Assembly (NCBI GenBank): GCA_963710605.1
Contig: CAVQBA010000004.1
Span: forward strand, 448,001-512,000
Direction: 5' to 3'
DNA length: 64,000 nt
Origin: an uncultured cyanobacterium
GTDB lineage: Bacteria; Cyanobacteriota; Cyanobacteriia; Cyanobacteriales; Cyanobacteriaceae
The translations under genes were made by a program, and so were the position numbers. This document shows positions 9,221 to 43,113 of the stretch, in pieces. The notes beneath the pieces are model-generated. The model did not search any database and was not told where the DNA came from. It worked only from the letters and a program-made list of their open reading frames with translations. Numbering within the stretch: position 1 is the first letter of the stretch; every line of letters starts with the position of its first letter.

Positions 9221-9224
9221 TATA

Positions 9225-20856: not shown

Positions 20857-22344
20857 CTATCGGCTTTTATATAATTGTATTCTCCCTGTACCTAAGTTAA
20901 AACCGACGGGATTATCACCATCGGGAAAGACGCTAATATGAAACTGGAAAGTACCTGAAAAGGGAGGATTTCGTTTAGCTTTAAGGACGATCGTGATAGT
21001 ATTATTAGCAGAAACTGGATTATCTAAAGATAGATTAATCGTTGGTGTCGAATCAGATGATAATGAAGCACTAATTGGTATCTCTGTTTTTTGATTATTA
21101 CTATCAACTACAAAGGCTGTAGTTTGCTCAAGTTTAAAATCAATATCTTCAGCATTCGCACTCGGTGTAATCATCACCTTTTTTAACGAGGAAGAAGAAT
21201 TTGCCGGCATTTGGATTTCTAGATAATATGTCGCATTGTAATATGAAGTTGTCTTATGAGGTGTTCTAAATGTAACTAGCTTGGGAGGAGTGCCAGTAAA
21301 GAGATTATTACGATTAACAGCTACAGTATTGTTAGTAACAGCAGATTTATTTTCATTGCGTGATGGTGTAGGAATAGAATTTTCTTCAACTTGATTTGGT
21401 ATTTTACCAAGAGACTCAACTACTTGTTGATTAGTTGTGGTTTGAGGAGTAAAATAAAAATCACCAATTAAAGAAGAAGATGTCCAAGGTACTTGTTCAT
21501 TATTAGTTTTTTGAGCGACATCAACACGAACTTTTTTAAAAACTTCTTCAATATTTTGATTTTGGTTATCTATATGTTTGAGTAACATCTCGGTAAATGT
21601 ACCATTTTTACCTGTACCATCTTGAGCTATATTCCCTGGTCCGGTCGCATAGGCAATAAAGCTACCTGTGGCACTATTATATACGGGTGCTAAGCCTTTA
21701 GTTATGGCGTTGCTACGACTCCAACTACGAGCAAAAGGATTGTCTCGACAAGCATCAAGAATAATGATATTAACATCATTTTGAGCATCTTCGATCGTGC
21801 CTAAAAGTTTTCCTAAAGGTAAGGTTTCGTAATTGACTTCACTAGCACTAGTTAAATCTGCATCTACAGGAATAAGATAGTTTTCGCCATTAACTTGTAC
21901 TCCATGCCCTGCGTAATAAAATAAACCGATCGCTCCTGAGGTTAGTTTCTGATAAAATTGCTTTAAACCTTGATCCATCGATCGTAAATCAGCATTAGTT
22001 AATAAAATTACCTCAAAACCCAAATTTCGTAATGAGCTAGCCATATCATTGGCATCGTTGATCGGATTACGTAAATTACCCCCATTTTGATATTCTGAAT
22101 TACCAACCACTAAAGCAACTCTTTTGGGTTGATTTTGGCTCAATAAAAAGTTATCACTAGAAAAAAATTGGTTGCTTGTATTAATGCTGGTAGCTGTCGA
22201 TAATGATTCAGTCAATTTTTGCTTGAAAGTAAATATAGGAGTCTTAGCATCTACCAAAGAAATATTGAGAGTAGAAGTAAATAAAGTTGTTACTGTAGTG
22301 ATAAAGAAATTACTTAATAATTGTTTTGATTTGTTTTTACTCAT
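20857..22344 (-). CDS. Caspase-family (peptidase C14) protein with N-terminal signal-like segment and C-terminal DUF2808-like domain
   Basis: ALVVGNSEY, LRNPINDA, FYYAGHG, ILDACR (His-Cys dyad), QVPW; C-terminus PPKL...RNPPFSGTFQF..VFPDGDNP..LGTGRI. Confidence 0.85.
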   Translation of the reverse strand: MSKNKSKQLLSNFFITTVTTLFTSTLNISLVDAKTPIFTFKQKLTESLSTATSINTSNQFFSSDNFLLSQNQPKRVALVVGNSEYQNGGNLRNPINDANDMASSLRNLGFEVILLTNADLRSMDQGLKQFYQKLTSGAIGLFYYAGHGVQVNGENYLIPVDADLTSASEVNYETLPLGKLLGTIEDAQNDVNIIILDACRDNPFARSWSRSNAITKGLAPVYNSATGSFIAYATGPGNIAQDGTGKNGTFTEMLLKHIDNQNQNIEEVFKKVRVDVAQKTNNEQVPWTSSSLIGDFYFTPQTTTNQQVVESLGKIPNQVEENSIPTPSRNENKSAVTNNTVAVNRNNLFTGTPPKLVTFRTPHKTTSYYNATYYLEIQMPANSSSSLKKVMITPSANAEDIDFKLEQTTAFVVDSNNQKTEIPISASLSSDSTPTINLSLDNPVSANNTITIVLKAKRNPPFSGTFQFHISVFPDGDNPVGFNLGTGRIQLYKSR

Positions 22345-22417
22345 AATTTTGTCTCAATAACTTCTCGCTCAAATCTTTATTTTTTACTTTTACTTTTTAG
22401 TTGTGGCGTTGGTAAAG

Positions 22418-23032
22418 TTATTCATTATCTGGGCATAAAAGTGGTGGGCAAGGAGATTGAGATGGAGGAGAGACAATCTGCTGATCTTTAGGTGTTATAT
22501 TATTTGTTGGGGTAGATTCGGTAGTAGTAGATATAACAGGGGCAGTATTTAAAAACGCTTCTAAATCTAAAATACCACCACGAGATAAACCACCAGAAGA
22601 AACACGAGCCGAGATATCAAATAATTCTTGTAATACAGTATTCGGATTATCTTTTGGTTCTAATGTTAAAAGCAAACCATCGGTTTGACAGCCGAAACCA
22701 GATGATTTTTTTTGAGCTACACAAATTACCGATTGTCGATTCATTGTTCCTGTAGCAACATAACGTAAAGTACCGTTATCGGAAAACTTTTGAAATCTTT
22801 TGCTTACCTCATCGCATCTTTTTTGTGGAGTCCAAGTAGAATTACTAAAAAAATTACTTTTCCAACTTATTAATTGAATTTTCCCTCTTTTTGTATCAAC
22901 TACGGTAGTCGGATTATTTTTAAATATTAAGCATTTGTAGGTATTTTTTGATTGTGCGACAGATGGCATTGCTAACACGCTATTAATCAACACTAATAAA
23001 GTTGAAATACCTGTTATCTGTTTAATATCCAT
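22418..23032 (-). CDS. Exported COP23-like domain protein
   Basis: Signal peptide; I.W.S..F...WTPQKRC..VS.RF, G.MN.Q.VIC, LL.TL.P.DNP; tail CPPLLCPDNE. Confidence 0.8.
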   Translation of the reverse strand: MDIKQITGISTLLVLINSVLAMPSVAQSKNTYKCLIFKNNPTTVVDTKRGKIQLISWKSNFFSNSTWTPQKRCDEVSKRFQKFSDNGTLRYVATGTMNRQSVICVAQKKSSGFGCQTDGLLLTLEPKDNPNTVLQELFDISARVSSGGLSRGGILDLEAFLNTAPVISTTTESTPTNNITPKDQQIVSPPSQSPCPPLLCPDNE

Positions 23033-23153
23033 GATTAAATATTAGCTACTAATTATTAATTATCAATTACTAATTATAGATAACAATTTTCAAGATCTAA
23101 TAGTAATTCTTACTAAACTTAACTATCAATATTACTTGGTAAAAAATTACTAA

Positions 23154-24059
23154 TTATTGATTAATATTATCTAATTGTTGTAAAATTTTATATAAACCAT
23201 GTGCGATCGTCTCAATCACTGATTCACTAGTCCAATAACTACAATGAGAAAGGGGATTCCAAGATTTTAATAGATTGCCATCATTTACTTCTTGATCTTC
23301 TTTTACTACACTGGCATAAGCATCGTTAAGAGACTTGAGAGGATAGCCCATAATATCGCTTTTATTATAAAAGTTAATCCATTCACCTTCTAAATCTGGG
23401 TAGTAGTTTGCTAACTTTTCTGAGGGTACTTTTATTGGTTGATCAAAGTTAGGATGTCGTAAAGACCAAAAAGGCATTTGGCTAGCTAAAGTATAAACAT
23501 TAGTCAACGTTTCTCCCCGCTCTAATGGTGTATCACCAATATCAACTTGAGCTTTTTGAGTTTGCAAATCGTAGATATAGTTACTGGTAATGATAGTACC
23601 TAAACTATGACAAATAATACATAATGGGGCAGTACTTCCTGCTTGATCTTCTTGTGCTAAACTATTCAAACTGTCAGCGTAACAGCGGTGAATGCCATCG
23701 TAACTCCAAAGATCTTCTACTTTTTTACTGGTCATGTGATAAGTCAAACTATCTGCGATCGCTTGAAATAAAAATTCTCTTAAACCAAAAAAACTTTCTA
23801 GTTTATCTACATCTAATCGATCGTATAAATCCTTACGCTCGTCTTGCAACACGGGAGTCCAATTAATTGCTGATATCGCCAATTTAGAATCAGCCCATTC
23901 TAGTTTTTCGTCTTTGTTTCCCTTTATTTGTGCAATCTCGGCTAGTTTGAGTTTTAAAGCATCTGCCATGCCTTTAGTGTATTTTGAGTTTTCTTTTTGA
24001 TCAAATTCATTACCTACACAAATACCGTGAACGATCGCAATCGCAATTTTGGTTGACAT
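23154..24059 (-). CDS. Putative alpha/beta-hydrolase-fold protein
   Basis: AIVHGI, ICHSLG nucleophile elbow, WINFYNKSD, SHCSYW. Confidence 0.7.
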   Translation of the reverse strand: MSTKIAIAIVHGICVGNEFDQKENSKYTKGMADALKLKLAEIAQIKGNKDEKLEWADSKLAISAINWTPVLQDERKDLYDRLDVDKLESFFGLREFLFQAIADSLTYHMTSKKVEDLWSYDGIHRCYADSLNSLAQEDQAGSTAPLCIICHSLGTIITSNYIYDLQTQKAQVDIGDTPLERGETLTNVYTLASQMPFWSLRHPNFDQPIKVPSEKLANYYPDLEGEWINFYNKSDIMGYPLKSLNDAYASVVKEDQEVNDGNLLKSWNPLSHCSYWTSESVIETIAHGLYKILQQLDNINQ

Positions 24060-24380
24060 AATATTTTATTTTAATTATCCATAGAGATAGTTTTAAATTT
24101 GCTTTAAACGATCTGACTTTAAGCGTAATTGCTTGAAGCTTTTAAATCAATCCTCTCAGATACTATCACTTGACAAATACGACTTGCTTACCAACTTTTT
24201 TTAAATGTGTCGTTTATAGCTTAAGTTTTTTAAGATTAAACCTATCACTAAAGGCGATCGTACTTAAATTAGGAAACTCGATCGTATTTCACTTTGGAGA
24301 TTTAACGATGATGAATTAATTATCTGTGGCATAATTTAAAGTAATTATTTATCCTATTCTAAGATCTATTCGTATTGCTT

Positions 24381-24797
24381 ATGTCTGCAAGAGATTTATT
24401 TCATCAATCAGTCAAAAAAGCCTTGCAGAAAGACGGATGGGAAATAACCCACGATCCTCTTCATCTAGCAGTAGATGATATAGAATTTTATGTAGATCTT
24501 GGAGCAGAAAGAATAATAGCGGCACAAAAAGCAGAAACCAAAATTGCGGTAGAAATTAAATCTTTTTTAGGAGCATCAGAGGTCAAAGAATTTCATTTAG
24601 CTGTCGGTCAAATTCTCAACTATAGATTCGCTTTGGAAAAAGAAGAGCCAAAACGTATATTATATTTAGCCATTGATCAAGATGTTTATAAAGATTTTTT
24701 TTCTCGTTTATTTGTGCAGAATGTTTAAAAAAAATATGAAATTAAATTATTAATTTTTAATTATATTGATGAGGAAATTGTGCTGTGGAAAGAATAA
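24381..24797 (+). pseudogene. xisH: XisH-family protein with in-frame TAA at 24726-24728
   Basis: SARDLFH..VKKAL.KDGW.ITHDP, VDLGAE, AVEIKSF; frame continues KKYEIKLLIFNYIDEEIVLWKE* after the stop. Confidence 0.82.
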
Positions 24798-25114
24798 ATT
24801 ATCCCAAAACGATTCAAAAAATATTAAGTCGTCACTCGACTAACGATTTAGCAAATGGAACAGAAATTAAGTTGATTTTTGATACAAATAAAAATCATTA
24901 TCAAGTATTAAATATTGGTTGGAAAGAGCAAAGAAGAGTTTATGGAGTGATCATTCATGTAGATATAATCGGCGACAAAATTTGGATTCAAAGAGATGGT
25001 ACTGAAATTGGTATTGCGAATGAATTACTTAATGAGGGTATTACCAAAGAAAACATTGTTTTAGGTTTCAAATCACCTTTTAAAAGACAATTTACCGATT
25101 TTGCTGTTGATTAA
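24785..25114 (+). CDS. xisI: XisI-family protein
   Basis: HYQV..IGW, IHVDI...KIWIQRDGTE.GIA.EL, IVLGF; overlaps xisH end. Confidence 0.9.
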   Translation: MERINYPKTIQKILSRHSTNDLANGTEIKLIFDTNKNHYQVLNIGWKEQRRVYGVIIHVDIIGDKIWIQRDGTEIGIANELLNEGITKENIVLGFKSPFKRQFTDFAVD

Positions 25115-25191
25115 ATATTTATTCTTTTTGTATTTACTGAAGTAATTACTATGTTAGAGAATCAATAGCCATCGCCCACGATCGATCGTAC

Positions 25192-25677
25192 TCAGTGAAT
25201 CTCATTCAAAATACTACCATCAGGCATAATAGTATTACAGAAAATACAACCTTTGATCCAAACACTTTCCCATTCTTCGACTCCAGTCAAATTGGCATTA
25301 GTCAAATTAGCATTGCGGAAATCAGCACTGAGAAAATTGGCATTAACCAATCTAGCACCAGTCAAATTAGCTTCTCTCAAAGTAGCACAACTCAAACAAG
25401 CCTCACTCAAATCAGCTCCCGTCAGATTAGCTTTTTCCAGACAAATTTGCCCCATAGAAGCATTACGGAGATTCGCACCACTTAAGTTAACCCCTTCCAT
25501 GTAAACTTCTGCCACGTTGGCGTCACTCAAATTAATTCCACTCAAATCAACATTAATCAAGCCCCCTTGGGTCACGTAAACATCAGTAAAATCCTGCCCT
25601 TCCAAATATATCCCAGAGAAATGCCGCTCACCAGAGTTGTATCTTCTAATCAATTCTTTAGCAGTAATATCTACCAT
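25192..25677 (-). CDS. Pentapeptide repeat protein
   Basis: A(N/D)Lxx repeats; ELIRRYNSGERHF start; TIMPDG end. Confidence 0.92.
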   Translation of the reverse strand: MVDITAKELIRRYNSGERHFSGIYLEGQDFTDVYVTQGGLINVDLSGINLSDANVAEVYMEGVNLSGANLRNASMGQICLEKANLTGADLSEACLSCATLREANLTGARLVNANFLSADFRNANLTNANLTGVEEWESVWIKGCIFCNTIMPDGSILNEIH

Positions 25678-25766
25678 AATTCAAATATCCAAACAATCTA
25701 TCAACTAAATAAGAGCGTAACTAAACGATGGTAAACCTTTATGCTCCAAACAAAGATAAATATAAC

Positions 25767-27686
25767 CTATGAAACTGGTGAGCAAATATCAATGGTGAGG
25801 GAAGTTTGTTGTTTTTGAAGATGATAAGCAATCCGAGATGCTAGTTGTTTTACCCCAACGGATTTATGAACTAACTCATCAGCATTACTAGTACATAATT
25901 GATTTTGAACTTTTTTATGTTGATGAATACTAAAGTATAATACGGGTAATTTATACCACTGAGGATTTGTTCTTAGTACCTGACACAATTCTATTCCGCT
26001 TAAGTGAGGCATTTCGATATCGAGTATTAGTAAATCGGGAGTAATCGCTTTAAATACATCCCAAAATTGTCGGGGATCATTTAAGGTAGTTACCTGAAGC
26101 CCCCAAGGCTCTAATGAACAAGGTAAAAGCTCTAATAATTCTCGATCGTCATCAACAATCATTACTTTTTTTTCTTGGCAAGAATTTTGTACTGCTTGTT
26201 GACAATAAACGATCGCTTCAGATGGGGTGATTGGTTGTTTGAGATAAAATGTTGCTCCGTTTTTAGCTAAAAGTAATCTATCTTCAAATCGATCACGATC
26301 GGCTATCACAATAATTGGGATTAAGGGAAATAATGAATGTACTTCTTTCATGAAAGATAAATATTCATCGAGAGATTGAGAATTTGAATGAGATTGAGAG
26401 CAAGAAACTCGTAACAAAATTGCATTAGGTAATCTTTTATTTTCTATCCCTTGAAGCCAACCTTGAGCTAGTTTGAGAGTAGCCGTCGATCTGGTTTCGA
26501 TGTTATGAACGATCGCTTCGGTGTTTAATCGTTCAATAAATTGTCGATCGTCATCAATGATAAGTAATGAAAAATTATACCCCGTCTCTAACTTTTTTGA
26601 GATTGGATTCTGTGAATTATGTTTGCTGGTTAATTGTTGATGTAAAGTGTTAAAAATAGTTTCAAATTGTAATACTTGTTTTTTTTCTTCATTTACTTTA
26701 TTTTCTAATAACTCCTCTAATTGTTTAGCGAGTTTTGAACCTTGATCAAAACCAAAAACACCAACCATTCCAGCTAATTTATGAGCGATCGATTTAGCTT
26801 CTTGACGTTTTACATCGATTAAATCATTTTGTTGCCATGCTAGTAAAGCGTTTTGTAAGACAGTTAATTGTTGACTTATCTTCGGTTGATATTTTTTCCA
26901 GGCTTGGGCTAGTGCTTCTAAATGTTGTTTTTGTTGATCAGACATTTTTGCTGGTTGCCGATCGTAATCAGTTGGGAAAGAAGAAGATTTTTGCTCTGAA
27001 TCAGGATTTGGAGGTAAAAATTTTAAGCAATATCCTCTACCCCTTAAAGTTTCGATCGGGTTATTTTTCACACCTGTTTTTTTTAGCTTTTGACGTAAAT
27101 ATCTTAAATGCGATCGAACAGTAGCTTCGCAAGGGTATTCCACTGATGACCATAAATTATCAATAATATCTTCAATACTAAAAACGAATTGAGGATTACT
27201 TAAAAATAGTTCTAATAACTGATATTCTTTAGTGGTCAAAGAAACCGATTTTTGTTGATAAACAACCTGACAATTACGAGTATCTAATTGTAAATCTTCC
27301 CAAGTCAAAATAGGCGAAAGATGAGACTGATTTCGACGTAATAAAGCCCTGATTCTTGCCCCTAATTCTTCTACATTAAAGGGCTTACACAAATAATCAT
27401 CAGCCCCGGCATCTAAACCAATAATTTTTTCTTGGTTACTATCATGAGCCGTTAATAACAAGATTGGCATCTCATAGCCATGACTACGAAAACGCTTACA
27501 TAAACTAATACCATCTAACTTTGGTAAAGACCAATCAAGAATAACTAAATCATAACTATAATTAGAGCCATAAGTCCATCCTTGCTCACCATCAAAAACC
27601 GCATCGAAAGTATAATTTTTTTCGCCGAGGAGTTTTTGCAATACATCAATTAAAATTTCGTCATCATCAACTAATAAAATTCTCAT
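25767..27686 (-). CDS. rcaC: Multidomain response regulator REC-wHTH(OmpR)-Hpt-REC-REC, RcaC-like
   Basis: LVILDWSLP, ETLRGRGY, Hpt AHKLAG, terminal LLILDIEMP; 639 aa; third gene of rcaE-F-C order. Confidence 0.82.
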   Translation of the reverse strand: MRILLVDDDEILIDVLQKLLGEKNYTFDAVFDGEQGWTYGSNYSYDLVILDWSLPKLDGISLCKRFRSHGYEMPILLLTAHDSNQEKIIGLDAGADDYLCKPFNVEELGARIRALLRRNQSHLSPILTWEDLQLDTRNCQVVYQQKSVSLTTKEYQLLELFLSNPQFVFSIEDIIDNLWSSVEYPCEATVRSHLRYLRQKLKKTGVKNNPIETLRGRGYCLKFLPPNPDSEQKSSSFPTDYDRQPAKMSDQQKQHLEALAQAWKKYQPKISQQLTVLQNALLAWQQNDLIDVKRQEAKSIAHKLAGMVGVFGFDQGSKLAKQLEELLENKVNEEKKQVLQFETIFNTLHQQLTSKHNSQNPISKKLETGYNFSLLIIDDDRQFIERLNTEAIVHNIETRSTATLKLAQGWLQGIENKRLPNAILLRVSCSQSHSNSQSLDEYLSFMKEVHSLFPLIPIIVIADRDRFEDRLLLAKNGATFYLKQPITPSEAIVYCQQAVQNSCQEKKVMIVDDDRELLELLPCSLEPWGLQVTTLNDPRQFWDVFKAITPDLLILDIEMPHLSGIELCQVLRTNPQWYKLPVLYFSIHQHKKVQNQLCTSNADELVHKSVGVKQLASRIAYHLQKQQTSLTIDICSPVS

Positions 27687-27716
27687 AAATTATACTTATA
27701 TAAAGTTCTAGCTAAA

Positions 27717-28097
27717 TTAATATTCCCAATGCAACATTTGAGCAACTCTACTGGCTATAGTCATAGAATTAAAAGGTTTAGTGATCACACCAATCACTCC
27801 TAAATCTTGAAATTGTGTTTTATCTGCACCTTGAGTTTTGGCAGTAAAAAAAATGACAGGAATTAATTTAGTTTGTCTATTAGTTTTCAATTTCGATAAA
27901 GTTTGAATACCATCCATCTCAGGCATCATCACATCTAAGAGAATGACATCAGGTTGTTGATTTTCAGCCATGGCTATACCATCTATTCCTGAACAAGCAC
28001 TCAAAACTTGCCAATCAGCTTCAATCTCAATCCCCATTTGAACAACTTCTCGAATCGCTTCATCATCATCAATTAGCAAAATACATTTATCATTCAT
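27717..28097 (-). CDS. rcaF: Single-domain response regulator, RcaF-like
   Basis: ILLIDDD, ILLDVMMP, ITKPF; between CBCR kinase and RcaC-like gene. Confidence 0.82.
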   Translation of the reverse strand: MNDKCILLIDDDEAIREVVQMGIEIEADWQVLSACSGIDGIAMAENQQPDVILLDVMMPEMDGIQTLSKLKTNRQTKLIPVIFFTAKTQGADKTQFQDLGVIGVITKPFNSMTIASRVAQMLHWEY

Positions 28098-28109
28098 TTA
28101 ATTAATTAA

Positions 28110-32267: not shown

Positions 32268-33129
32268 TTATGCTAAAGTTATACTGGCAACCTTACCGCC
32301 CATTTTTTGAATCTTTTGCAAGGTTGTAGAAAGTTGATCGTAAGGAACTAACCAAGCTTTATTAACTCGAAGTACTTTAGGATAACGAGGTCGATTCATT
32401 GCTGAGACTTCGATCCGATAAATACGACCTTCTTGGGTAGAATTTCTAAAAGTTTGATTAGGTGTTACTTTACGAGTAGAAGGTTGATATCCCCAACCTT
32501 GTCCGCCTCCAGAAGGAGCAATAACTGCGGATGCACTATTACGCCCTAAGTCTTTGGCTAAGCGAGATTTACTCCCAGCAACTTGAGATTCGATCGCTAT
32601 TAGCATAACCTCTGTACAATTGAAACATCCGAGTAAAACCAACAGTTTTTTGGTCAGTTTGAGTCGAAAATCCTCGGTAATAAGGAACGATATTATCACC
32701 AAAATTATTTTCATATTCAGCTGAATCAAGATAAGAATCAATATCAGCGTCAAAACCTTTATTTTGGTAAAGATCAAGATGATAAATTACTTCTGATTCA
32801 TCATAAGCCGCACGACCGAGTAAATGTTTTAAATTCAGCTCAATTACACGGGTTTGAAAATTGTCATACAAAAATTTTGATTTATATAACTCTGATTTTG
32901 CCACAGCTCGGACAAAATCTCTGACTGTAATCGAACCATTACATAACAAAGATTCTTCGCCTTTTAGACGTTCAGAAGTCATAATGTAATCGTTACCTAT
33001 CACCTGTCGATAAACTGCTTTGATTACTAACCTTGCTTCTTCTTTACTCCAATTAGAGCGTAATTCAAGAGGTTGCATATCGCTAAAAGCTGACACTCCT
33101 AGTCGAGATGCGGCTGATGTAATTGCCAC
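32268..33129 (-). pseudogene. cpcC: Phycocyanin rod linker (CpcC/CpcI-like, ~286 aa), +1 frameshift at ~32589
   Basis: [39 protein letters not shown]: deleting one A restores YANSDRSQVAG and joins the CpcD-like C-terminal domain. Confidence 0.88.
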
Positions 33130-33359: not shown

Positions 33360-33373
33360 CGTTCCAAGTCAGT

Positions 33374-34192
33374 TTAGGCATCAGTTATGCTTAAAACCTG
33401 ACAGTTGCTTTTATTTATTTTTTGTAACGTTACTGAAAGTCGGTCATAAGGAACAACATACTCTTTGACACTACGTCTGAGTTGAGTGTTACCCATTTTG
33501 CCTCTTTGAATAACTCGTATTTTATACAACTGACCTTGTTGATCAATTGTTGTACCAGCAAGCTCTTTACCCATATTGGGTGTGTTGACAGGAGTAGCTG
33601 TATTACGGGCTAAATCGTAAGTTAGGCGAGGAGTGCCACTATTTCCTTGAGCTCGATCGCTATTGGCATAACCTCTATATAATTGAAACATACGGGTAAA
33701 GCCAACGGTTTTTTGTCCTCTTTGGGTTGAAAAACCACGATAATAAGGAACTATATTGTCACCAAAGTTTTGCGTATATTCATCTGAATCAATATATGAA
33801 TCAATATCAGCAGAAAATCCTTGATTTTGATAGGTATCAAGATGTTCAATAATTTCTGATTCATCATAAGGCGCTCGACCAAGTAAATGTTTGATATTTA
33901 ATTCGATCGTGCGAGGATGATAATTAGGATAGAAAAATTTGACTTTATATAATTCAGATTTAGCAACTGCTCTGACGAACTCACGTACGCAAATAGAACC
34001 ATTACATAATAAAGATTCGGCACTAGACAAACGCTCTGATTTCATCAAATGTTCATTTCCTAGTACTTGCCGATAAACAGCTCTGATTGCTATTTGGGCA
34101 TCTTCTAGAGTCCAATTAAAACGAAGTTCAACAGGGCTAGTATCACTAAAAGCAGATGTTCCTAAATTAGATGCTGTTGTGGTGATTGCCAT
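33374..34192 (-). CDS. cpcC: Phycocyanin rod linker (CpcC/CpcH-like, 272 aa)
   Basis: [25 protein letters not shown]-terminal VPYDRLS. Confidence 0.92.
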
Positions 34193-34246
34193 TAAACAAT
34201 GCTCCTAATTTTGATAAGTTTTGATAAAAAATTTTTGTTAAAGTAT

Positions 34247-34315: not shown

Positions 34316-34333
34316 AATTATTATAATTAAGGC

Positions 34334-34822: not shown

Positions 34823-34930
34823 TGTTTTAATTGCTTTTGATATTTGATAAAGTTTTTGAAGGTTGGGAGAATGTAAAAGCTAATTTTTGCTATTTATCTA
34901 CATTCATAGTCTATTTGTTAATTAAAAATA

Positions 34931-35449
34931 TTAGCCAACTGCTGATGCGGCACGATCGAAGTAGGTTGCAACTTCAGCCATTAAAGAACTACAATCACCA
35001 TCAGTAACATTGTTTTTATCGTTAGCAATTGAGATGGCGGCATCTTTCATTTTGTTAACACCGACTGCAACAGAAGAGCCGGGTGTACCTAAAGCTAAAT
35101 AGGTTTCACGAAGTCCATTTAAACAACGATCTTCTAAAACACTAGCGTCACCGCTGAAAATAGCATAGGTAACATAACGCAAAATAATTTCCATATCACG
35201 CAAACAAGCTGCCATACGACGACTGGTATAAGCATTTCCACCAGGAGCAATTAGTTGAGGTTGCTCAGCAAATAAAGAACGTGCCGCATTAGTTACAATC
35301 GCAGAAGCATTGCTGGTAATACGATTAACTGTATCCATGCGTTTATTGCTATCGCTAACCATTTGACTTAAAGCATCGATTTGGGAAGTAGTTAAAAATT
35401 CACCACGAGCATCAGCCTGAGATACAACTCTAGTAAAAGCGTCAAACAT
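34931..35449 (-). CDS. cpcB: Phycocyanin beta subunit
   Basis: [24 protein letters not shown]; 172 aa. Confidence 0.98.
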
Positions 35450-35647
35450 ATAAGATTTCTCCTTGATTTAAAATTTAGTTTTTAAAACTGAACCCTAACT
35501 AGTTTATTTATTACTAAAGAGTTGGTAAAACGGAGAGCTTAATGTTTTACTGTCTCAATTAACTAAAAAATTAGCTTTCTTTCTAGTAGTAATACCGAGT
35601 TAGGAATTCAGTGGCTTTGGACCTGACTATTATTCAACCAAAACTAC

Positions 35648-35665
35648 TGTGCAATTTTCGTGCAA
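35648..35665 (-). promoter_or_regulatory. L-box (RcaC binding site) upstream of cpcB
   Basis: Minus strand TTGCACG-AAAA-TTGCACA vs established TTGCACA-N4-TTGCACA (13/14). Confidence 0.85.
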
Positions 35666-35776
35666 TTTTTAAGCAAATTAGTAAAGTTTTATTGCTTTTT
35701 ATCACAAACAATCAACAACTATAGCAAAAAACACCTCGATCGAGTTCTTCAGTCTCCTGCACCCCTTTTGTAAGGG

Positions 35777-35964
35777 CAGGACTGATTCATGTCTTATTTC
35801 TATAATTTCTATACCTAAGAAATAGCAATAAATGTAGTTGTTTTTTTCGCTTTCGTAAAAAGACAAGATAACCAAATAGCTCGATCGTCTATGTAGTAAT
35901 AGCTTCTAGCTATTTATTCTGAGCAGATAGCTATTTTCTTCTTCCTTTGAATGAAACAGCCCTG
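35777..35964 (+). mobile_element. MITE, 188 bp, second copy
   Basis: CAGGACTGATTCAT...ATGAAACAGCCCTG; right half nearly identical to 31691-31879; 12-bp flanks CTTTTGTAAGGG/TTTTTCTAAGGG (10/12). Confidence 0.85.
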
Positions 35965-36068
35965 TTTTTCTAAGGGGGGACTAAGGGGAATCGGGGAGAT
36001 ACAGGCAGAAGGGGTAAAAGAGGGGTTAGGGGTGGTTAAACGTCTGTGACTGAATCAACAACTATCAA

Positions 36069-37889
36069 TTATGAACAAGTGCCTAAAGGATTTAATTCAC
36101 TTTCGTCACAAAGACAAACAACTCCGGGGGGGCAATCTTCTTTTTTAGGTTCAGGTTGAAGTATTATTTCGGGTAACTGATTACTATTATCAGGAGTAAT
36201 TGGTTGTATATTTACATTTCCCTGATCTTTTAAACACTTTTCAGCTTTATCAACTATTTTTTTGGCTTGTAATAACCAATAATCAGTGCCATATATTTGA
36301 CTCGCAGTTTTAATTGCCGCACTACAATATTCGTATTCTAAATCTTGATTAGCTTGATTAAGTAAACTTGTATTTTTTTGATGTTCTTCTTGCCATTGAC
36401 TCAGGTTAATTAATGCCGCTTCTTTTATTTTATTAGGGGGAATGGTATCTATTTTTTCTAATGCTTCTTCAAGATTACCATCTATTTTGTAAGAGCTTTT
36501 TGCTTTTTCAAAAATTTTTTTGCTCCAATCTTCTGTTTGTATTTGAACTTGGGTATAGTATTCATACTCTTGAGAAATAGGGGCGAGTATTTCTAAGGCT
36601 TCGTCATATCTTGTAAGTCGTGCTTTTTGTTTCGCTTCTTCAAAACGACAAAGTCCGATATATTCAGTTAAAACTTTATTCGGAATGACATTATTTTCTT
36701 CTTCTTTTGAGTCTTCTGCTGACTCATAACATTGAGTATAAGCTTTTTGATCGTATTTATTTTTTAAAGTATTGATGCCTTCTTCTTTTCGCTCAGCAGT
36801 ACGAGTTATTTCACTTTGATTCATTAAATAAATTCCTCCTGTGGCAACTAAACCGATCGTTAAAGCGGTGGTAACAGTTGAACCGAGGGGAGACTTTAAC
36901 CAATCAAGAACAACGTTTAATTTAGTCACTGGAGCAGGATTATTAGTTAAATTACTATTACTATTACTATTACTAGATGAATTATTATTTGGTTTAATTG
37001 AAGATTGGCTAGTTGTTTGTCTTACTTCTATTTCAGGTGGAGTTAGAAGATGACGATCGTTTTTGATACTTGATGGTTGCTGATAATTTTTTAATGCGGT
37101 TAATACTTCAGGTGCTGATTGATAACGTTTTTTATAACTACCAAGGGTCATTTTGTGCAAAATATTGGCTAATGCAGGATTTATTCCCTGTTGTGAGACA
37201 ATAATTTCTTCGTCATCGTTTTTATCAAAATCAGCGGGTTTTTTTCCTGTTAATGCTTGAATCGCAATAATACCTAAAGCATAAATATCGCTATTTTTAT
37301 AAGGTTTACCATCAAACTGCTCTTTGGGCATATACCAAGGAGTACCAATGGCACTAGTTCGATCGATTAAACGACTTTGATCTAAATTGAATTGTTTAAC
37401 TGCACCAAAATCAATCAAGACTAATTTTTGGTCTGCCACACAACGAATTAGGTTGTCTGGTTTAATATCTCGATGAATAATTCCTTGATTATGAATTACT
37501 TTAAGTATATCTAAACATTCTTGTAATAAATTAATTACCTTTTGTTCTGACCAAGGTTGACCAACAATCAACTCACTTTTAAGAGTCTCACCTTCGATGT
37601 AATCTTGAACTAAAAAAAATTGTCCTTCTTGCTCAAAATAATCAATCAATTTAGGTACTTGAGGATGATTAATTTGTTTAAGAATTTCAGCTTCTTGTTG
37701 AAAAAGTTGTTGAGCTTTCGCCACAAAATTTTGTTGTGCAGACATCAAATATAGTTGTTTGATGACGCACAAAGTTTGAGTTTCACTATTTTTAACTAAA
37801 TAAACATGACCAAAACTACCACTACCGATCGTTTTCACCATTTGATATGGAGAAGGTAAGTTGATTGTATTGGTAGTAGAATTATTCAT
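36069..37889 (-). CDS. Membrane Ser/Thr protein kinase with C-terminal helical-repeat ectodomain
   Basis: GSGSFG, VIK, HRDIKPDN, DFG, GTPWY; one TM; tail CPPGVVCLCD...TCS. Confidence 0.92.
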   Translation of the reverse strand: MNNSTTNTINLPSPYQMVKTIGSGSFGHVYLVKNSETQTLCVIKQLYLMSAQQNFVAKAQQLFQQEAEILKQINHPQVPKLIDYFEQEGQFFLVQDYIEGETLKSELIVGQPWSEQKVINLLQECLDILKVIHNQGIIHRDIKPDNLIRCVADQKLVLIDFGAVKQFNLDQSRLIDRTSAIGTPWYMPKEQFDGKPYKNSDIYALGIIAIQALTGKKPADFDKNDDEEIIVSQQGINPALANILHKMTLGSYKKRYQSAPEVLTALKNYQQPSSIKNDRHLLTPPEIEVRQTTSQSSIKPNNNSSSNSNSNSNLTNNPAPVTKLNVVLDWLKSPLGSTVTTALTIGLVATGGIYLMNQSEITRTAERKEEGINTLKNKYDQKAYTQCYESAEDSKEEENNVIPNKVLTEYIGLCRFEEAKQKARLTRYDEALEILAPISQEYEYYTQVQIQTEDWSKKIFEKAKSSYKIDGNLEEALEKIDTIPPNKIKEAALINLSQWQEEHQKNTSLLNQANQDLEYEYCSAAIKTASQIYGTDYWLLQAKKIVDKAEKCLKDQGNVNIQPITPDNSNQLPEIILQPEPKKEDCPPGVVCLCDESELNPLGTCS

Positions 37890-37917
37890 TATTTACTAAT
37901 TATTAAGAGCGTTCTAA

Positions 37918-39069
37918 TTAATCACATAAAACAGGAGGACATTCAATCACCTCCCCCGTTTTAGGTAATGGATCGGGTTTAGGTGGTTGTGGATTTGGTT
38001 GTGGATTTGGACGAGGTTTGGGTACAGGAGGGCTAATCACTGTTGGGGATGAATCCATTAAGGGTGCTTGAGTGAGATATTTTTCCATGTCTAATACTCT
38101 TTGACTTCTTCTTACTGGCATAGTACCAACTTTTACCGCTTGTTGAAATAAATCTTTCATTACATCATCAGGATTATCTTTTGGTTCTAATGTTAATAGT
38201 AATCCTGATGAATTACAGGTGATATTTGAGCCCGGTGATATTTGACCTCCAGAAACACAGATAACGTTATATTTGTAGCCATTATTTCCTGTCATTTTAC
38301 CTGTGGCAATATATCTTAAGTTACCTGTATCAGAAAAGCTTTGAAATCTTTTTGTAACTTCATCGCATCTTTTTTGTGGTGTCCATTGAGATTGGCTACT
38401 TTCAAAGAAACGACTTTCCCAGACAATCAGTTGTATTCTACCTCTAGAAGTATCCACGATCGTCATCGGCTTTCCTTGGTGTTGAATACAGCTATAAACT
38501 CTTTGAGATTTTTGGGCAACGATTTGAGTTGGTGATTTATTTTCTTCTAGTAACGGTGCTTGATCTAAAGTTGATTGAACTGATACGGTGTAATTAGTAG
38601 TTTGTACACTTCTAACCACAGGTGAGCCACCTTTTCTGGTTGCCTTACTAAATAGGTCTTGTAATACTTGATTTGGGTTATCATTTGGTTGTAAAGTCAT
38701 CAACAATCCATCTGACATACATTTATAACCACTACCTGCTGTACGTGTACCTGTACAAATTACAGGTTGATTATTCATTCTTCCTGTAGTGATATATCTT
38801 AAAGTGCCGTTATCGGAAAACTTTTGAAATCTTTTGCTTATTTCTTGACATCTTTTTTGAGGTGTCCATCCCGAATTTTTAAAGTATTGACTTTCCCAGA
38901 CTATTAACTGTATTTTGCCTCTAGAAGTATCAGCGACTGTTTTAGGTTTTCCTTGATGTTGAATACAACTGTAATTTACTTTTCCCTGTGCTTTGACTTG
39001 ACTCAATGAGCTAAAAGAAGTGAATGTCATCAGGATGACTAAAGTTTTTGTTAGTAAAGAAATATTCAT
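37918..39069 (-). CDS. Exported protein with two tandem COP23-like domains
   Basis: Signal peptide; two YSCIQHQGKP..DTSRG.IQLIVWES..WTPQKRC repeats; Pro-rich linker; tail CPPVLCD. Confidence 0.82.
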   Translation of the reverse strand: MNISLLTKTLVILMTFTSFSSLSQVKAQGKVNYSCIQHQGKPKTVADTSRGKIQLIVWESQYFKNSGWTPQKRCQEISKRFQKFSDNGTLRYITTGRMNNQPVICTGTRTAGSGYKCMSDGLLMTLQPNDNPNQVLQDLFSKATRKGGSPVVRSVQTTNYTVSVQSTLDQAPLLEENKSPTQIVAQKSQRVYSCIQHQGKPMTIVDTSRGRIQLIVWESRFFESSQSQWTPQKRCDEVTKRFQSFSDTGNLRYIATGKMTGNNGYKYNVICVSGGQISPGSNITCNSSGLLLTLEPKDNPDDVMKDLFQQAVKVGTMPVRRSQRVLDMEKYLTQAPLMDSSPTVISPPVPKPRPNPQPNPQPPKPDPLPKTGEVIECPPVLCD

Positions 39070-39437
39070 AGTATTTTTACAAAAAGATATTGATTAAATT
39101 CAGTAATGATTGTTAATGTTTAATTACCCGACACGACACAAAAGTTAGGATTACACGTTTAAATTTAATAATTTTACAGCTTATCTATTATTGTTTAAGC
39201 GAGCATAATCTATACCTAATAAATTCAGGTGTTACTGTGCTATGTATATATAGGTTGACATTTTTGTGTCTATGCAAGTTCCTTAAATAATTAACAAATA
39301 AATTTTCCGACTGAATCAAATAGCTAATCTGAACAGAAAAATCATCATTTTCATTCTACAGATAAAACTCACTATTTAACCATACTTATTATTTATTCTT
39401 AAAATTTGTTAACTTTATCTGAACGCTAGTTTTTTTT

Positions 39438-41117
39438 TTAGATTTGCCAAATCATTACACCGCCTTCTTTTAATGTACTTACAAATAAATTTCCTGTTTT
39501 ATTTACAGTAGTTAATTCCCCAATTTTTTCAGGAAAGTTAAAATCAAATATTGCTACATCTTGAGTCCGATCGATTATACTAAGATGATTATCTTGAAAT
39601 ATAGACAATATTAATTTTCCGTCATTACTTAGACTTAAATATTCGATCGCTGATTTACTATCAGTTTTAATTGTTTTTTCTTCTTCCGCAGTTTCTAAAT
39701 TCCAGATTTTAATTGTTTTATCTCCACCACCACTCAACACATATTTATTATCTTGACTCAAACATACACTATTCACGGCTAATTTATGACCTGAAAAACT
39801 ATTTATTTCGGTTTGTTTTTCTACATCCCAAATTTTAATTGTTTTGTCACTTCCACTACTTGCGACTATCTTACCGTCATTACTAATAGCTAAAGTATTA
39901 ATCGCTTGTTTATGCCCTGATAGACTAGCTATTTCGGTTTGATTTTCTATTTGCCAAAGTTTGATTGTTTTATCACTACCACTACTGATTAAAGTTTTAC
40001 TATCATCACTAAAAGTTAAACTATTAATTGACATTCTATGAGCTTTATTTATCGTTACTATTTCTTTTTTGTTTTGCCAATCCCATAGTTGAATACTTTT
40101 ATCTTTTAAAGCGATCGCTAAAACTTGATTTTGAGAATTTAAAGCTAAACATTCAATATTTTGGCTATCTATATCTAAGGTTGCAACTTCTTTAATTTGA
40201 ATTATATCCCATACTTTTTTTGTATTAGTTAATTCAGGAATAGCGATCGAAGATAAATCAATTTGTGGTTTATTTTCTGCTTCTTCTTCGGTTACTTTAT
40301 TATCTGTTTTTTTCGATTCTCTTCTTTGATTTCTTTTCGTTTTACTTTTAACTTCTTCTTTATTTTTATAGGCTATATCTTTGTTTTCATCTTCCGCTTT
40401 TGTTGTAAGTTTTTCCGAATCATCAGTTACTTTTTCAGATTTACTTTCTTCACTTGCCGATACATCTTTTTCAGCAACAGGAGTAGGTTTATTTTCTGTT
40501 TCTTCTATCGATTCTGAAGGTTGATTATCATCGCTAGTAGATTCTTCCTCTTTTTCTGGTTCGTTTTCTTCGGCAACAGGGGTAGGTTGATTCTCTGTTT
40601 CTTTTTCTGCCTCTTTTACCGATTCTGATTCGTTTTCTTCGGCAACAGGAGTAGGTTGATTTTCTGTTTCTTTTTCTACCGATTCATTTACTTTTGAAGA
40701 AGAAGTTTCCTCTGAGTTTTCTGTTGTTAAATCTACTTGTTTATCTTCAGGAATATCCATTAAAACAGTCGCTTCAAGTGCTTCTGTGATAAACAAAAAT
40801 TCTGGTCCTTTAAAACCTAATGTAATAGTATCTCCTGTTTGTAAAGCATGAGGATGATCAATCTTTTTACTATTAATTAATGTACCGTTAGTTGTACCTT
40901 TATCGACAATTTGCCATAAAATTTGATGATTATTTTCAATTAATTCAATTTGAGCGTGATACCGAGAAACTGTTGGGTATTCACTAGGATTAAGGACAAT
41001 TTGACAATCAGGAGAACGACCAAGTAAAGTTGTTTGTTGAGGTGCTAAAATATAATGTAATTTTTGATCTGAAGTTGGATTTTTTAAGGTTAAACTAGCA
41101 GATGAATAATTTTCCAT
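39438..41117 (-). CDS. FHA domain-acidic repeat linker-WD40 protein
   Basis: FHA LGR, VSRYHA, TNGT; GH..(S/G)DKTIK.W repeats; ETEN(Q/K)PTPVAE x3. Confidence 0.9.
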   Translation of the reverse strand: MENYSSASLTLKNPTSDQKLHYILAPQQTTLLGRSPDCQIVLNPSEYPTVSRYHAQIELIENNHQILWQIVDKGTTNGTLINSKKIDHPHALQTGDTITLGFKGPEFLFITEALEATVLMDIPEDKQVDLTTENSEETSSSKVNESVEKETENQPTPVAEENESESVKEAEKETENQPTPVAEENEPEKEEESTSDDNQPSESIEETENKPTPVAEKDVSASEESKSEKVTDDSEKLTTKAEDENKDIAYKNKEEVKSKTKRNQRRESKKTDNKVTEEEAENKPQIDLSSIAIPELTNTKKVWDIIQIKEVATLDIDSQNIECLALNSQNQVLAIALKDKSIQLWDWQNKKEIVTINKAHRMSINSLTFSDDSKTLISSGSDKTIKLWQIENQTEIASLSGHKQAINTLAISNDGKIVASSGSDKTIKIWDVEKQTEINSFSGHKLAVNSVCLSQDNKYVLSGGGDKTIKIWNLETAEEEKTIKTDSKSAIEYLSLSNDGKLILSIFQDNHLSIIDRTQDVAIFDFNFPEKIGELTTVNKTGNLFVSTLKEGGVMIWQI

Positions 41118-41154
41118 GATTTTTAAATTTTTAATAGTTGGTTATATGAACAGT

Positions 41155-41260
41155 TATAGTAGTTTCAAATAAAAACTAAACGTTTAAATTACCTCAAATA
41201 CAGATAAAACGATCGTCTATGGATAAATTTGATCTACCGAACTTATTTGAATTGACTATA
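41155..41260. mobile_element. Short MITE with TATAGT-ended TIRs
   Basis: TATAGTAGTTTCAAATAA ... TTATTTGAATTGACTATA; ends related to 46027-46188 and 59595-59755. Confidence 0.55.
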
Positions 41261-41349
41261 ATTTAAACATAAAACGATCGATGCGTTAAAAATTTAGATA
41301 GTCCCAAGGATAAAAATAAAAAGTATTAATTATAAATTATATTCTATAT

Positions 41350-43113
41350 TTATTCAGGACATAATGGACCTGGACAAACTTCCACCACACCATCTGTTAT
41401 TGTCGGAGTAGTCAAATCATTTTCTGTTTGCAGATTAGGGCATTTAGAAATCAAATCTAACGCCTGCTTTTTCCATACGCTACTTTCAGGAATACTTTCT
41501 AATCTCTGATTAGCTTGTGCAATATCACCTCCATTTTCACAAATTATTTTAGCTTCTTTTAACAGTTGTTCTGACCAATCATCGATAAATTTTCTGGCAC
41601 GAGTATAGTTAGGTGATTTATTATTTACTTTCACTGCTATAGTAATCGCCTCGGCGAAGTTTCTTGCTAATGCTTGTGATTCGGCTAAACCTAACCAGCA
41701 TTTACCTAAAAATTCTTGTGTCAAACTATCAGCTATGGCTAAAGATTGAGTTTCGGTAGAATTAATTAAGCTGATACAATTATTAAATTCGTCGTTTTGA
41801 TAATAAGTTTCAATTTGACTAATTAAGTTTTCAACTTTTTTTTGATAACGATAATTGTTATAAATACTAACTCCTAAAATGGTCATAAAGATTAAAATAA
41901 CGATCGTGATTATTCCTTTAGTTGTTTTGATTTGACTACTTAAGTTATTAATAAAAGTTAACTTATTGTTTGCTCTATTTTCTTCATTTTCAGGTGTAGA
42001 AATATTCTGCTCGCTCGTCGTATTATTATTTGTTAAAGTAGGTATTTCTGAGTTATTAGTTATTGCTTGATCAGAAGTATTTTCTAAGTTATTAGTTTGT
42101 TGATTATCTTCGGTCTTTTTTTCTTGAGGTATAGTTTCTGGGGTAACTATTTGCGTAGCATCTAAAATTAATGGAGGTGTATTTTTTTCTGGTTGAGGTG
42201 CTTGTTTTTCTTCTTCGACTATTTTGTCTTCTTCTGTTTCAAAGGTAATTATTTGTGTACGGGTATAATCAGTTTCAGTCGCCAAAATCTGCTTATTTTC
42301 TAATTGAGGGAAAGATTGATTAATTGTATCTAAAATCTCGGCTACATTTTGATAACGTAAACGATTTTTACGGTGAGTCATTTTATCGATTATATTCACA
42401 AATCGATCGCTAAAATTTTGATTTTGACTTTGATTCCAATTCCAAGTACCCGAATCGTTTTCTTCTAAACTAGAAACATTTACACCAATTATTGAAGTGA
42501 TAATTACCATTCCTAAGGCATATATATCAGTACTAAATGTGGCTTTTCCTTTAAGTTGATCTTGAGTAATATATCTAGTATCTTCAAATGATATAGTTGC
42601 CATTGAAGAAGAATATAAATCGGTAGTTACTTTACCATAGTTATTAAAAATAATCTGTTGATTAGTATTAGTTAAAGTTAGGTTTTGTGGTTTAATCATT
42701 TGATGAATTAAACCTCGATCGTGAATTAATTTTAAAGCTAATAATAAGTTTTTAAGTTGCTTTATAATTTCTATTTCTGTTTGATTATCAGCATTATTTA
42801 TTTTAGTTTTTAAACTTTCTCCCGCTATTTTTTCATAAACTAAATCGATCGTATTTTCTGCTTCAATAACTTTAATTAGATTCGTAAAATCTTTGTTTTC
42901 TAATTCTTGACTAGATAACGACTTTATGGTACTAATAGTATCTTGAATTAACTTATTTTCTTCTACCGATCTATTTTTCAAATCAATATGTTGAACCCAA
43001 TATTGCTTAGTTGAATCATCTTTAGTTGTGACTAAATATAATTGCTCAGCTTCAAAATATTCTAAATTTTCGACTATGTTATAAATAGAAGCGATCGAGT
43101 TACTGTTGTTCAT
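41350..43113 (-). CDS. Membrane Ser/Thr pseudokinase with helical-repeat ectodomain
   Basis: Kinase-like (IKPQN, TDIYALG) but HRD->HQM, DFG->NYG, no Gly loop or beta3 Lys; one TM; tail CPGPLCPE. Confidence 0.85.
   Translation of the reverse strand: MNNSNSIASIYNIVENLEYFEAEQLYLVTTKDDSTKQYWVQHIDLKNRSVEENKLIQDTISTIKSLSSQELENKDFTNLIKVIEAENTIDLVYEKIAGESLKTKINNADNQTEIEIIKQLKNLLLALKLIHDRGLIHQMIKPQNLTLTNTNQQIIFNNYGKVTTDLYSSSMATISFEDTRYITQDQLKGKATFSTDIYALGMVIITSIIGVNVSSLEENDSGTWNWNQSQNQNFSDRFVNIIDKMTHRKNRLRYQNVAEILDTINQSFPQLENKQILATETDYTRTQIITFETEEDKIVEEEKQAPQPEKNTPPLILDATQIVTPETIPQEKKTEDNQQTNNLENTSDQAITNNSEIPTLTNNNTTSEQNISTPENEENRANNKLTFINNLSSQIKTTKGIITIVILIFMTILGVSIYNNYRYQKKVENLISQIETYYQNDEFNNCISLINSTETQSLAIADSLTQEFLGKCWLGLAESQALARNFAEAITIAVKVNNKSPNYTRARKFIDDWSEQLLKEAKIICENGGDIAQANQRLESIPESSVWKKQALDLISKCPNLQTENDLTTPTITDGVVEVCPGPLCPE

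Follow-up and report, generated by a model that had tools for sequence, protein, structure and literature searches.

Why should a receptor kinase, a pseudokinase and two secreted proteins of the COP23 family end in the same short peptide? The question is raised by a 64,000-nucleotide stretch of DNA from an uncultured cyanobacterium (contig CAVQBA010000004.1, positions 448,001 to 512,000; hereafter the window), in which four such proteins run through a flexible tether of variable sequence into a loop of six to seven residues, C-P-x-x-[LI]-[LF]-C, close to the last residue. A preliminary description of the window had taken these tails for a disulfide-constrained docking, cross-linking or sorting tag of an extracytoplasmic signalling system. 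We find in the window one copy of a signalling module that faces the periplasm and is conserved in cyanobacteria; about 13 kb of unrelated genes divide it in two. Comparison of homologs supports the tail as a real, selected feature, apparently specific to COP23 and this kinase/pseudokinase family. For its function we tentatively favour, at somewhat less than an even chance, a putative disulfide-closed docking tag that assembles the cognate periplasmic components of the module.

The four minus-strand open reading frames (ORFs), each with a C-terminal Cys pair behind a low-complexity tether, read as first reported. The single-domain COP23 protein (COP23c) ends in ...SPCPPLLCPDNE, the tandem two-domain COP23 protein in ...IECPPVLCD and the pseudokinase in ...VEVCPGPLCPE, with one to four residues after the second Cys. 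The kinase ends in ...EDCPPGVVCLCDESELNPLGTCS (tail: ...CPPGVVCLCDESELNPLGTCS). Because kinases of genus g3 show the same tandem form (DCPP[NG]VLC-I-CPGPLC-PN, a plan also present in L003 and L067), we read its tail as two consecutive loops, CPPGVVC (C586-C592) and C594...C605, with one residue after the last Cys. The motif that had been cited earlier for the kinase is real, but in the alignment it is an extra loop (CPPGVVC), and the position of the orthologs' canonical CPGPLC is held by C594...C605.

Within the genome, the tail is confined to these proteins. When all seven contigs (3.93 Mb) were scanned for CPx(2,3)[LV]C, the motif was found in the last 30 residues of 5/5463 ORFs of at least 60 amino acids, namely the four module proteins and an ORF of 78 aa that is unlikely to be a gene, and at any position in six ORFs genome-wide. 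Restricted to ORFs of at least 100 amino acids, this search, which had been proposed beforehand as a check, returned precisely the four module proteins out of 3225, whereas 300 within-protein shuffles averaged 0.2 matches and never gave more than 2. No tail is encoded by the genome's three other COP23 genes. Since most third codon positions are different between the four tails, a shared DNA element or a recent gene conversion can be ruled out as their source, and the likeness points to selection at the protein level.

The tail was also expected to be conserved in orthologs, and it is present in homologs while the tether varies freely in length and sequence. A CP-based pattern occurs in 27 of 48 COP23 homologs (P0023 additionally reads CSPLLC); orthologs of COP23c with 55-65% identity (P0002-P0008) keep it and more distant homologs lack it. 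The 44 distinct COP23 tails give the logo C, P (41/44), P (32/44), L/I/V (41/44), L/F (44/44), C, then P or D. In 32/44 a single last residue follows the second Cys, and proteins with simple C-x4-C tails end one to seven residues past it. On the receptor side, a terminal Cys pair was present in 13/13 kinase-ectodomain homologs and, in the family (20 genomes), in all 24 complete ectodomain-homologous ORFs, kinases as well as pseudokinases. Fourteen kinase tails read [VI][IV]x[LIV]-C-P-[GP]-[PIL]-L-C, with P as the next residue in 12, and CPGPLC ends each of the ten complete pseudokinase-lineage ORFs in family f1 (L082-L085, L087-L090, L014, L015). In loci L001-L020, the tail is carried by 17/29 COP23 proteins (including CPPLLCPDDNNNP of L003, which lies outside the regular expression), by 10/13 kinase-profile ORFs (including the tandem tail of L003) and by 0/195 other ORFs of at least 150 amino acids. 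When 401 genomes of the phylum were scanned for CPx[LIFM][LF]C[DE]-stop, there were 17 matches, against three in the reversed control; three of the 17 are real protein ends, all of them COP23 proteins of this family, and the other 14 lie in frames of 8-47 codons.

The number of Cys residues bears on the chemistry of the tail. Four Cys are invariant in the aligned COP23 domains; tailed COP23 proteins have six in total and tail-less ones four, kinase ectodomains have four, six or eight, and in the COP23 homologs P0014 and P0018 both tail Cys are lost together. Loop length ranges from C-x4-C to C-x16-C, with some loops in tandem. Even Cys counts, variable loop length and tandem loops fit a putative disulfide-closed loop and, together with the Cys-less derivatives described below, argue for a self-closed ring rather than a metal site or an obligatory inter-chain link. 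COP23 proteins of genus g3 (L009, L010, L017) have a single conserved Cys in the tether (...P-x-x-C-S...) and an odd total of five; their genes adjoin a gene for a zinc-ribbon-like protein.

The proteins that surround the tails are recognizable by domain (Table 1). The Gly-rich loop, the VAIK Lys, HRD and DFG are the defining motifs of Hanks-type kinases, and the kinase, aligned, shows GSGSFG, VIK, HRDIKPDN and DFG, which place it in this class. Its paralog keeps the Pkinase fold and has lost the catalytic motifs: EYFEAE replaces the Gly loop, the VAIK Lys is missing, HRD reads HQM and DFG reads NYG. These losses are common to four orthologs, so the protein is rightly called a pseudokinase, as it had been from the start. 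In BLASTP, the two match with E 1e-25 and the match extends into the ectodomain. Each has one hydrophobic segment between kinase domain and C-terminal part and each COP23 protein has a signal-like N-terminus, from which we infer that the C-termini of all four tailed proteins face the periplasm. As reported before, a gene for an FHA-WD40 protein, in which no hydrophobic segment was found, and a caspase-like gene lie on the minus strand with the tailed genes (ORF listing and Pfam), and the COP23 genes stand 28 bp from the kinase gene and 73 bp from the caspase gene. The caspase-like protein contains YAGHG and DACRD, which we take to be the context of the His/Cys dyad, and C199 as its sole Cys; with C14, this dyad and DUF2808 it belongs to the orthocaspase-DUF2808 type. 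The predicted parts of the module are thus a receptor kinase and a paralogous pseudokinase with all-helical, TPR-like ectodomains, secreted COP23 proteins, a secreted orthocaspase-DUF2808 and a cytoplasmic FHA-WD40 protein.

That these genes form one conserved module, as supposed earlier, is seen in relatives. In L003, from the same genus, tandem COP23, kinase, COP23 and DUF2808 protein are contiguous; the two sub-loci of the window are therefore one module that has been pulled apart by about 13 kb. L001 and L002 have the order COP23, COP23, kinase, COP23, caspase, with 4/4 tails and two separate genes in place of the window's tandem COP23. L005 reads GluR0-like channel, pseudokinase, COP23, COP23, kinase, FHA protein, trypsin-like peptidase, again with 4/4 tails. 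In L008, L014 and L015 the order is COP23, FHA-WD40, pseudokinase, channel, so that FHA-WD40 adjoins the pseudokinase (in L015 the FHA-WD40 assignment is by sequence likeness). In all of these loci, kinases and COP23 proteins are tailed wherever present. The succession COP23, caspase(-DUF2808) is kept in L003, L001, L114 and L115, and family f9 has FHA-WD40, kinase, tandem COP23, caspase-DUF2808, CHAT-TPR. The module recurs across cyanobacterial families, and of 301 genomes sampled from the order, 79 have ectodomain homologs. The COP23 family itself comprises 1733 cluster representatives at E <=0.001. The genome's other COP23 genes likewise lie near genes for kinases, FHA proteins and proteases (CHAT, trypsin-TPR), and P0064 is a COP23-CHAT fusion. 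A search for longer COP23 proteins, with three matches and weak as evidence, contained no kinase-COP23 fusion. A DUF2808 protein is reported in the Anabaena exoproteome (PMC10957091).

Two further observations concern the neighbours of the pseudokinase and COP23 genes. A gene for a GluR0-like ligand-gated potassium channel (SBP_bac_3 and Lig_chan) adjoins the pseudokinase in several genera (L005, L008, L014, L015, L165; in L015 and L165 assigned by sequence likeness) and a COP23 gene in the source genome (contig C6, 225626-226780). In L006 (G009, 7435-9504), two adjacent paralogs of 346 and 268 aa from an unrelated family lie beside a COP23 gene and share a further C-terminal Cys pair, ending in C-x-x-T-P-Q-P-x-x-C-[VL]-F.

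We propose that in the oxidising periplasm a disulfide between the two tail Cys would form a small ring and expose a Pro-x-Leu-Leu knob. The knob would act as a docking tag for a pocket in one of the module's components, with the COP23 domain, the TPR-like ectodomain or an accessory domain of the protease as candidates; C-terminal peptides are commonly bound by TPR domains. Through the tag, soluble COP23 proteins would be tethered to the kinase/pseudokinase pair and to one another, occupancy or clustering would alter kinase activity, and FHA-WD40 would read the resulting phospho-Thr. Since the C-terminal tags of sister modules are different, the tag may further serve to separate modules that work in parallel.

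One sister module is located in the source genome itself, on contig C7 (L038, 435815-437647). Here, a kinase with about 18 residues outside the membrane ends in ...ESPRPAW and the adjacent COP23 protein, of lipoprotein type, in ...ETPKSAW; the two are among only seven ORFs (of 3225) that end in [PR]x(2,3)W. An FHA protein is encoded upstream and a CHAT-TPR-SH3 protein downstream. A search of 121 genomes for orthologs of this kinase gave matches of at most 45% identity, limited to the kinase domain, and no orthologous pair. A five-gene cluster of G010 (L126, 3179-8716) and G012 (L125, 5773-11436) encodes an M48 peptidase, COP23, a trypsin-like peptidase, a DUF4344 putative metallopeptidase and a kinase, of which COP23 (...PGIKW), DUF4344 (...RGIYW) and kinase (...PGSVW) share the end [PR]-G-x-x-W; G012 additionally holds a Cys-loop module (L005). 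Exported proteins ending in ...QPVRGLW (source genome, contig C6, 349486-350391; relative L013, 15140-15709) may, judging by their ends, be a further member of the terminal-Trp class outside COP23 and kinases.

A third type of end is found in genus g27, where the kinase ends in ...NAPLRDL with a second LRDL upstream, the adjoining trypsin-TPR protein in ...NNNLRDL or ...EENLRSL and COP23 in ...THREL or ...NYRKL (L111, G561, 8577-13875; L112, G500, 6194-11410). In G561, kinase and trypsin-TPR protein are the only long ORFs ending in [P/N/T/K/H/Q]-LRDL, although the raw LRDL scan was close to its reversed control (13 vs 9; 24 vs 26) and the two module genes stood out after filtering for the ends of long ORFs. 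Also encoded in L111 and L112 are an FHA protein (about 717-720 aa) and four helical proteins (about 300 aa each); these accompanying proteins are found again next to the pseudokinase module in L008 and L013-L015. In Aphanothece hegewaldii (L165), with the gene order of L005, adjacent COP23 and kinase end in ...MAVPDLFQ and ...LEVPDDFR, which we read as a Cys-loop motif in which COP23 and kinase alike have other residues in place of the two Cys. Cys loops stand on both partners in Nostoc (L172-L178) and in a Xenococcaceae genome (L192), and L199 has the matched ends ...TSPLW with ...STPLW and ...LSDF with ...IEDF. Tandem arrays of kinase genes in L042-L063 (G027, G110, G341, G435) encode products with short similar ends such as ...SRLVDCNI, ...AKTCKL, ...LAFCIK and ...LLSRNDL.

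These ends separate the two halves of the proposal in the preliminary description. A disulfide-constrained docking tag fits the even Cys counts, while an obligatory cross-link is disfavoured by the Cys-less and non-Cys tags. Because kinases of genus g3 and of other families have loops where the COP23 proteins have none, tails can lack Cys altogether and sister modules use tags of other kinds, the shared element looks, from these comparisons, like a docking peptide merely stiffened by the disulfide, with no obligatory cross-link. A module-specific docking tag is favoured since the tail is confined to the non-protease periplasmic members, sister tags differ and the tails of partners co-vary. It is possible, although doubtful, that short C-terminal tags (Cys loop, ...PxxxW, ...LRDL, ...VPDxF) form a whole code by which parallel periplasmic COP23-kinase-protease modules are wired, each tag being shared within a module, differing between modules and read by a module-specific pocket.

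The co-variation of partners was quantified in loci found by COP23 likeness alone, which gave 30 COP23-kinase pairs no more than 800 bp apart and 23 after de-replication. In the last six residues, these 23 pairs have 25 identities versus 14.0 in shuffled pairings (P = 0.002), and without the loci of this family 19 versus 10.2 (P = 0.004). The last residue is W in 38 and F/Y in 15 of the 150 best COP23 representatives, and 21 of the 150 have a terminal Cys pair. At 77 loci found by COP23 likeness, 39/88 COP23 ORFs end in W and 14/88 in a Cys pair, neighbouring kinases end in a Cys pair in 21/44 cases, and among 795 other ORFs the two ends occur 28 and 27 times. Matching of COP23 and kinase termini thus appears real on average, but far from universal.

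For COP23, the AF2 model has a confident alpha/beta core with a predicted local distance difference test score (pLDDT) above 90, and a tether and tail at about 50. Foldseek against the PDB returned no match at E <=0.001 for this model, and the best VIA-align wide hit (Z 4.9 over 49 residues, partial and PH-like) lies below the tool's stated noise level and is uninformative as to function. The kinase ectodomain is modelled with nine helices at a pLDDT of 86. Its best Foldseek rows are the TPR proteins LapB, YfgM and BamD at a non-significant E of 0.03-0.06, Pfam finds no TPR match in it, and Atlas feature matches of 0.83-0.87 (<0.9) count as leads only. As to docking of the tail in cis, neither single-chain model places the tail confidently.

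Several results weigh against a module-specific docking tag. The same tag class is shared by only 8/23 pairs (shuffled 5.5, P = 0.04), and outside this family the class matches of 3/17 versus 1.7 are not significant (P = 0.19). All of these permutation P values are generous, because the pairs share ancestry and their independence is overstated. COP23 proteins ending in W, F or no tag stand beside Cys-loop kinases (L168, L171, L177, L179, L185; L114/L115), the kinases of genus g3 end in tandem loops that are missing from the COP23 proteins examined in that genus, and two of the source genome's four COP23 clusters show no match. Furthermore, the TPR-like assignment of the ectodomain is based on the non-significant Foldseek rows (E >=0.03), and the tails are undocked, at a pLDDT below 60, in both single-chain models.

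Among the alternatives, it is unlikely, and would in any case be compatible with docking rather than exclusive of it, that the secreted protease of the module recognizes the tails as labels of its substrates or activators among the module proteins. The activation of DegS by C-terminal peptides, and their use in directing proteins to tail-specific proteases, offer a comparison, and no examined cluster is without a secreted protease. The window, L114 and L115 have caspase-DUF2808, L001 has a C14 caspase and L003 a DUF2808 protein; trypsin-like peptidases are encoded in L005, L019, L111, L112, L125 and L126, CHAT in L014, L038 and L128, and M48 with DUF4344 in L125/L126. The COP23-CHAT fusion points in the same direction, and in the LRDL and W modules the protease is itself tagged. 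The proteases of the Cys-loop modules, however, are untagged, and Pfam finds no PDZ domain or known C-terminus reader on them.

A direct bridge between tails, in which inter-chain disulfides or a shared metal ion join COP23 to the receptors, is quite unlikely. Antibody hinge disulfides and the zinc hook or clasp are analogies, a Cys pair with a following Pro ends a Pro-rich tether on both partners, and the unpaired tail Cys of the g3 COP23 proteins, with their five Cys in total, would suit an inter-chain bond. Loop lengths from C-x4-C to C-x16-C and tandem loops nevertheless suit self-closed rings better than a fixed metal site, and on COP23 and kinase alike the Cys-less tails otherwise keep to the motif (VPDLFQ / VPDDFR). 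Sister modules do without Cys in their tags, and tag numbers are not 1:1, L001 having three COP23 tails for one kinase tail.

We regard it as very improbable that the tail is a sorting or anchoring signal for a general envelope machinery of the outer membrane, peptidoglycan or cell surface. A short motif behind a low-complexity linker on unrelated exported proteins does resemble C-terminal sorting tags, about a third of the COP23 representatives end in an aromatic residue (the 38 W and 15 F/Y of 150), and a cyanoexosortase A gene (TIGR03763) lies 1.4 kb from the caspase gene. Yet neither a hydrophobic helix nor a basic cluster follows the motif, most COP23 tails stopping one residue past the second Cys, the tail is restricted to four proteins of the genome, tags differ between modules of one genome, and no dedicated enzyme gene is conserved in the neighbourhoods. 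The exosortase gene (18548-19449, plus strand) is broken into two ORFs (18548-18931 and 18940-19449) that do not share a frame, owing to a frameshift, pseudogene formation or an assembly error, and is followed by an intact TIGR03279 radical SAM gene (19478-20794). A link of the tails to these two genes was ruled out: the exosortase is split, and no hydrophobic stretch follows any of the four tails, which therefore lack PEP-CTERM features and are not PEP-CTERM/exosortase substrates. Most improbable of all is a redox, metal or haem sensor with the Cys-Pro dipeptides as thiol/disulfide switch or ligand site, since the two dipeptides of many tails (CPPLLCP, CPGPLCP) and the haem binding by Cys-Pro motifs in other proteins are set against Cys-less or non-Cys tags in orthologous and sister modules, variable loop spacing and the absence of His or Met partners.

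Table 1. Genes and tails of the module in the window, with Pfam matches (E-value, bit score).
Feature	Position	Strand	Pfam match	Remarks
Exported orthocaspase, Peptidase_C14 with C-terminal DUF2808	20857..22344	-	C14 2.3e-41 (142.4 bits); DUF2808 1.1e-39 (136.2 bits)	N-terminal hydrophobic segment; without Cys tail
Single-domain COP23 (COP23c)	22418..23032	-	COP23 1.6e-38 (132 bits, cut-off 27), residues 32-148	signal-like N-terminus, four domain Cys, Pro/Thr/Ser tether, tail
Cys-loop tail of COP23c, CPPLLCPDNE (C195-C200)	22421..22450	-		
Ser/Thr receptor kinase, single-pass, predicted active	36069..37889	-	Pkinase 8.3e-45	transmembrane segment ~334-356; C-terminal ectodomain
Tandem Cys-loop tail of kinase, CPPGVVC-L-CDESELNPLGTC-S (C586, C592, C594, C605)	36072..36134	-		
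Kinase ectodomain, all-helical, TPR-like, four conserved Cys	36210..36821	-	no Pfam model	residues 357 to ~560
Tandem two-domain COP23	37918..39069	-	COP23 1.4e-72 (242 bits), two domains	28 bp upstream of kinase gene
Cys-loop tail of tandem COP23, CPPVLCD (C377-C382)	37921..37941	-		
FHA-WD40 adaptor, cytoplasmic	39438..41117	-	FHA 2.1e-17 (63.8 bits); WD40 1.8e-39 (132.9 bits)	acidic low-complexity linker
Single-pass pseudokinase	41350..43113	-	Pkinase 2.1e-14 (54 bits)	shorter homologous ectodomain
Cys-loop tail of pseudokinase, CPGPLCPE (C580-C585)	41353..41376	-		

The genes between the two sub-loci are unrelated to the module and encode XisH/XisI, a pentapeptide protein, response regulators, a PAS-GAF histidine kinase, a bilin reductase, and phycocyanin and rod-linker proteins. 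The second phycocyanin rod-linker gene (32268-33129, minus strand) is split into PBS_linker (32569-33129) and, overlapping in another frame, CpcD (32268-32777); the neighbouring copy (33374-34192) is intact. Just upstream of COP23c, a 301-aa protein (23154-24059, minus strand) has no Pfam or NCBIfam match, and in L104 a protein with a similar start adjoins an ectodomain homolog.

In comparison with known systems, the tail shares with PEP-CTERM/exosortase, LPXTG/sortase and GlyGly-CTERM/rhombosortase a short C-terminal motif on unrelated exported proteins, often behind a low-complexity linker and confined to a lineage. In C-terminal sorting tags, however, a transmembrane helix and a basic cluster follow the motif, many proteins per genome carry it and a dedicated enzyme processes it, whereas the Cys-loop tail is near-terminal, occurs on only four proteins and has no enzyme gene conserved alongside. 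The recognition of C-terminal peptides by TPR or PDZ domains (Hop-EEVD, PEX5-SKL, DegS-YxF) resembles the module in that a tethered peptide is paired with a receptor domain of helical repeats and that parallel systems use different tags. This is an analogy only, given the weak TPR likeness of the ectodomain, the absence of a PDZ match and a closure by two Cys in place of a linear peptide. PknB/PASTA kinases have the same plan of an N-terminal Hanks-type kinase, one membrane pass and a C-terminal extracytoplasmic domain, and also have FHA partners, but the window kinase reaches 141.5 bits with NF033483 (PknB_PASTA; cut-off 450) over residues 15-402 (kinase and juxtamembrane part), and its ectodomain model is all-helical and unannotated, unlike PASTA repeats. 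We know of no paired pseudokinase, COP23 partners or C-terminal tags in systems of the PknB type. For the tail itself, the oxytocin-type C-x4-C ring, the CPPC of the IgG hinge and the C-terminal disulfide loop of pilins come to mind as structural analogies with a near-terminal Cys pair or a Pro-rich context.

Both COP23 proteins of the window are clear members of the COP23 family (PF14218; circadian oscillating protein, Cyanothece/Synechococcus RF-1), the Pfam model of which stops before tether and tail. The remark that no family had been described for the tail holds: no Pfam or NCBIfam model covers it or matches at the C-terminus, and in the literature searched, with most subscription journals outside it, we found no description of a C-P-x-x-L-C tail on COP23 or kinases. 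In the accessible parts of the literature found, cop23 appears only as a rhythmic transcript; the publications contained no link between COP23 and kinases and no molecular function for COP23. The protein is not mentioned in the accessible parts of a bacterial kinase atlas (preprint 10.1101/2025.01.12.632604) and of a survey of cyanobacterial kinases (PMC2176072). The tail looks like an undescribed docking label for partners outside the cell membrane.

How bacterial receptor Ser/Thr kinases recognize partners outside the membrane is, to our knowledge, mostly unknown. The module gives COP23 a context as the secreted partner of a receptor kinase/pseudokinase pair, together with proteases and FHA adaptors, and its C-terminal tag offers a simple mutational handle. 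Should the tag code be true, interchangeable address labels would set partner choice in extracytoplasmic bacterial Ser/Thr kinase signalling, and COP23 would be a tethered ligand or adaptor of the receptors. If the tags do not set partner specificity, the tail remains a clean annotation marker of the module. If they do, they would explain how periplasmic pathways are kept apart in cells with many paralogous kinases, and would provide small, portable tags for engineering periplasmic assemblies.

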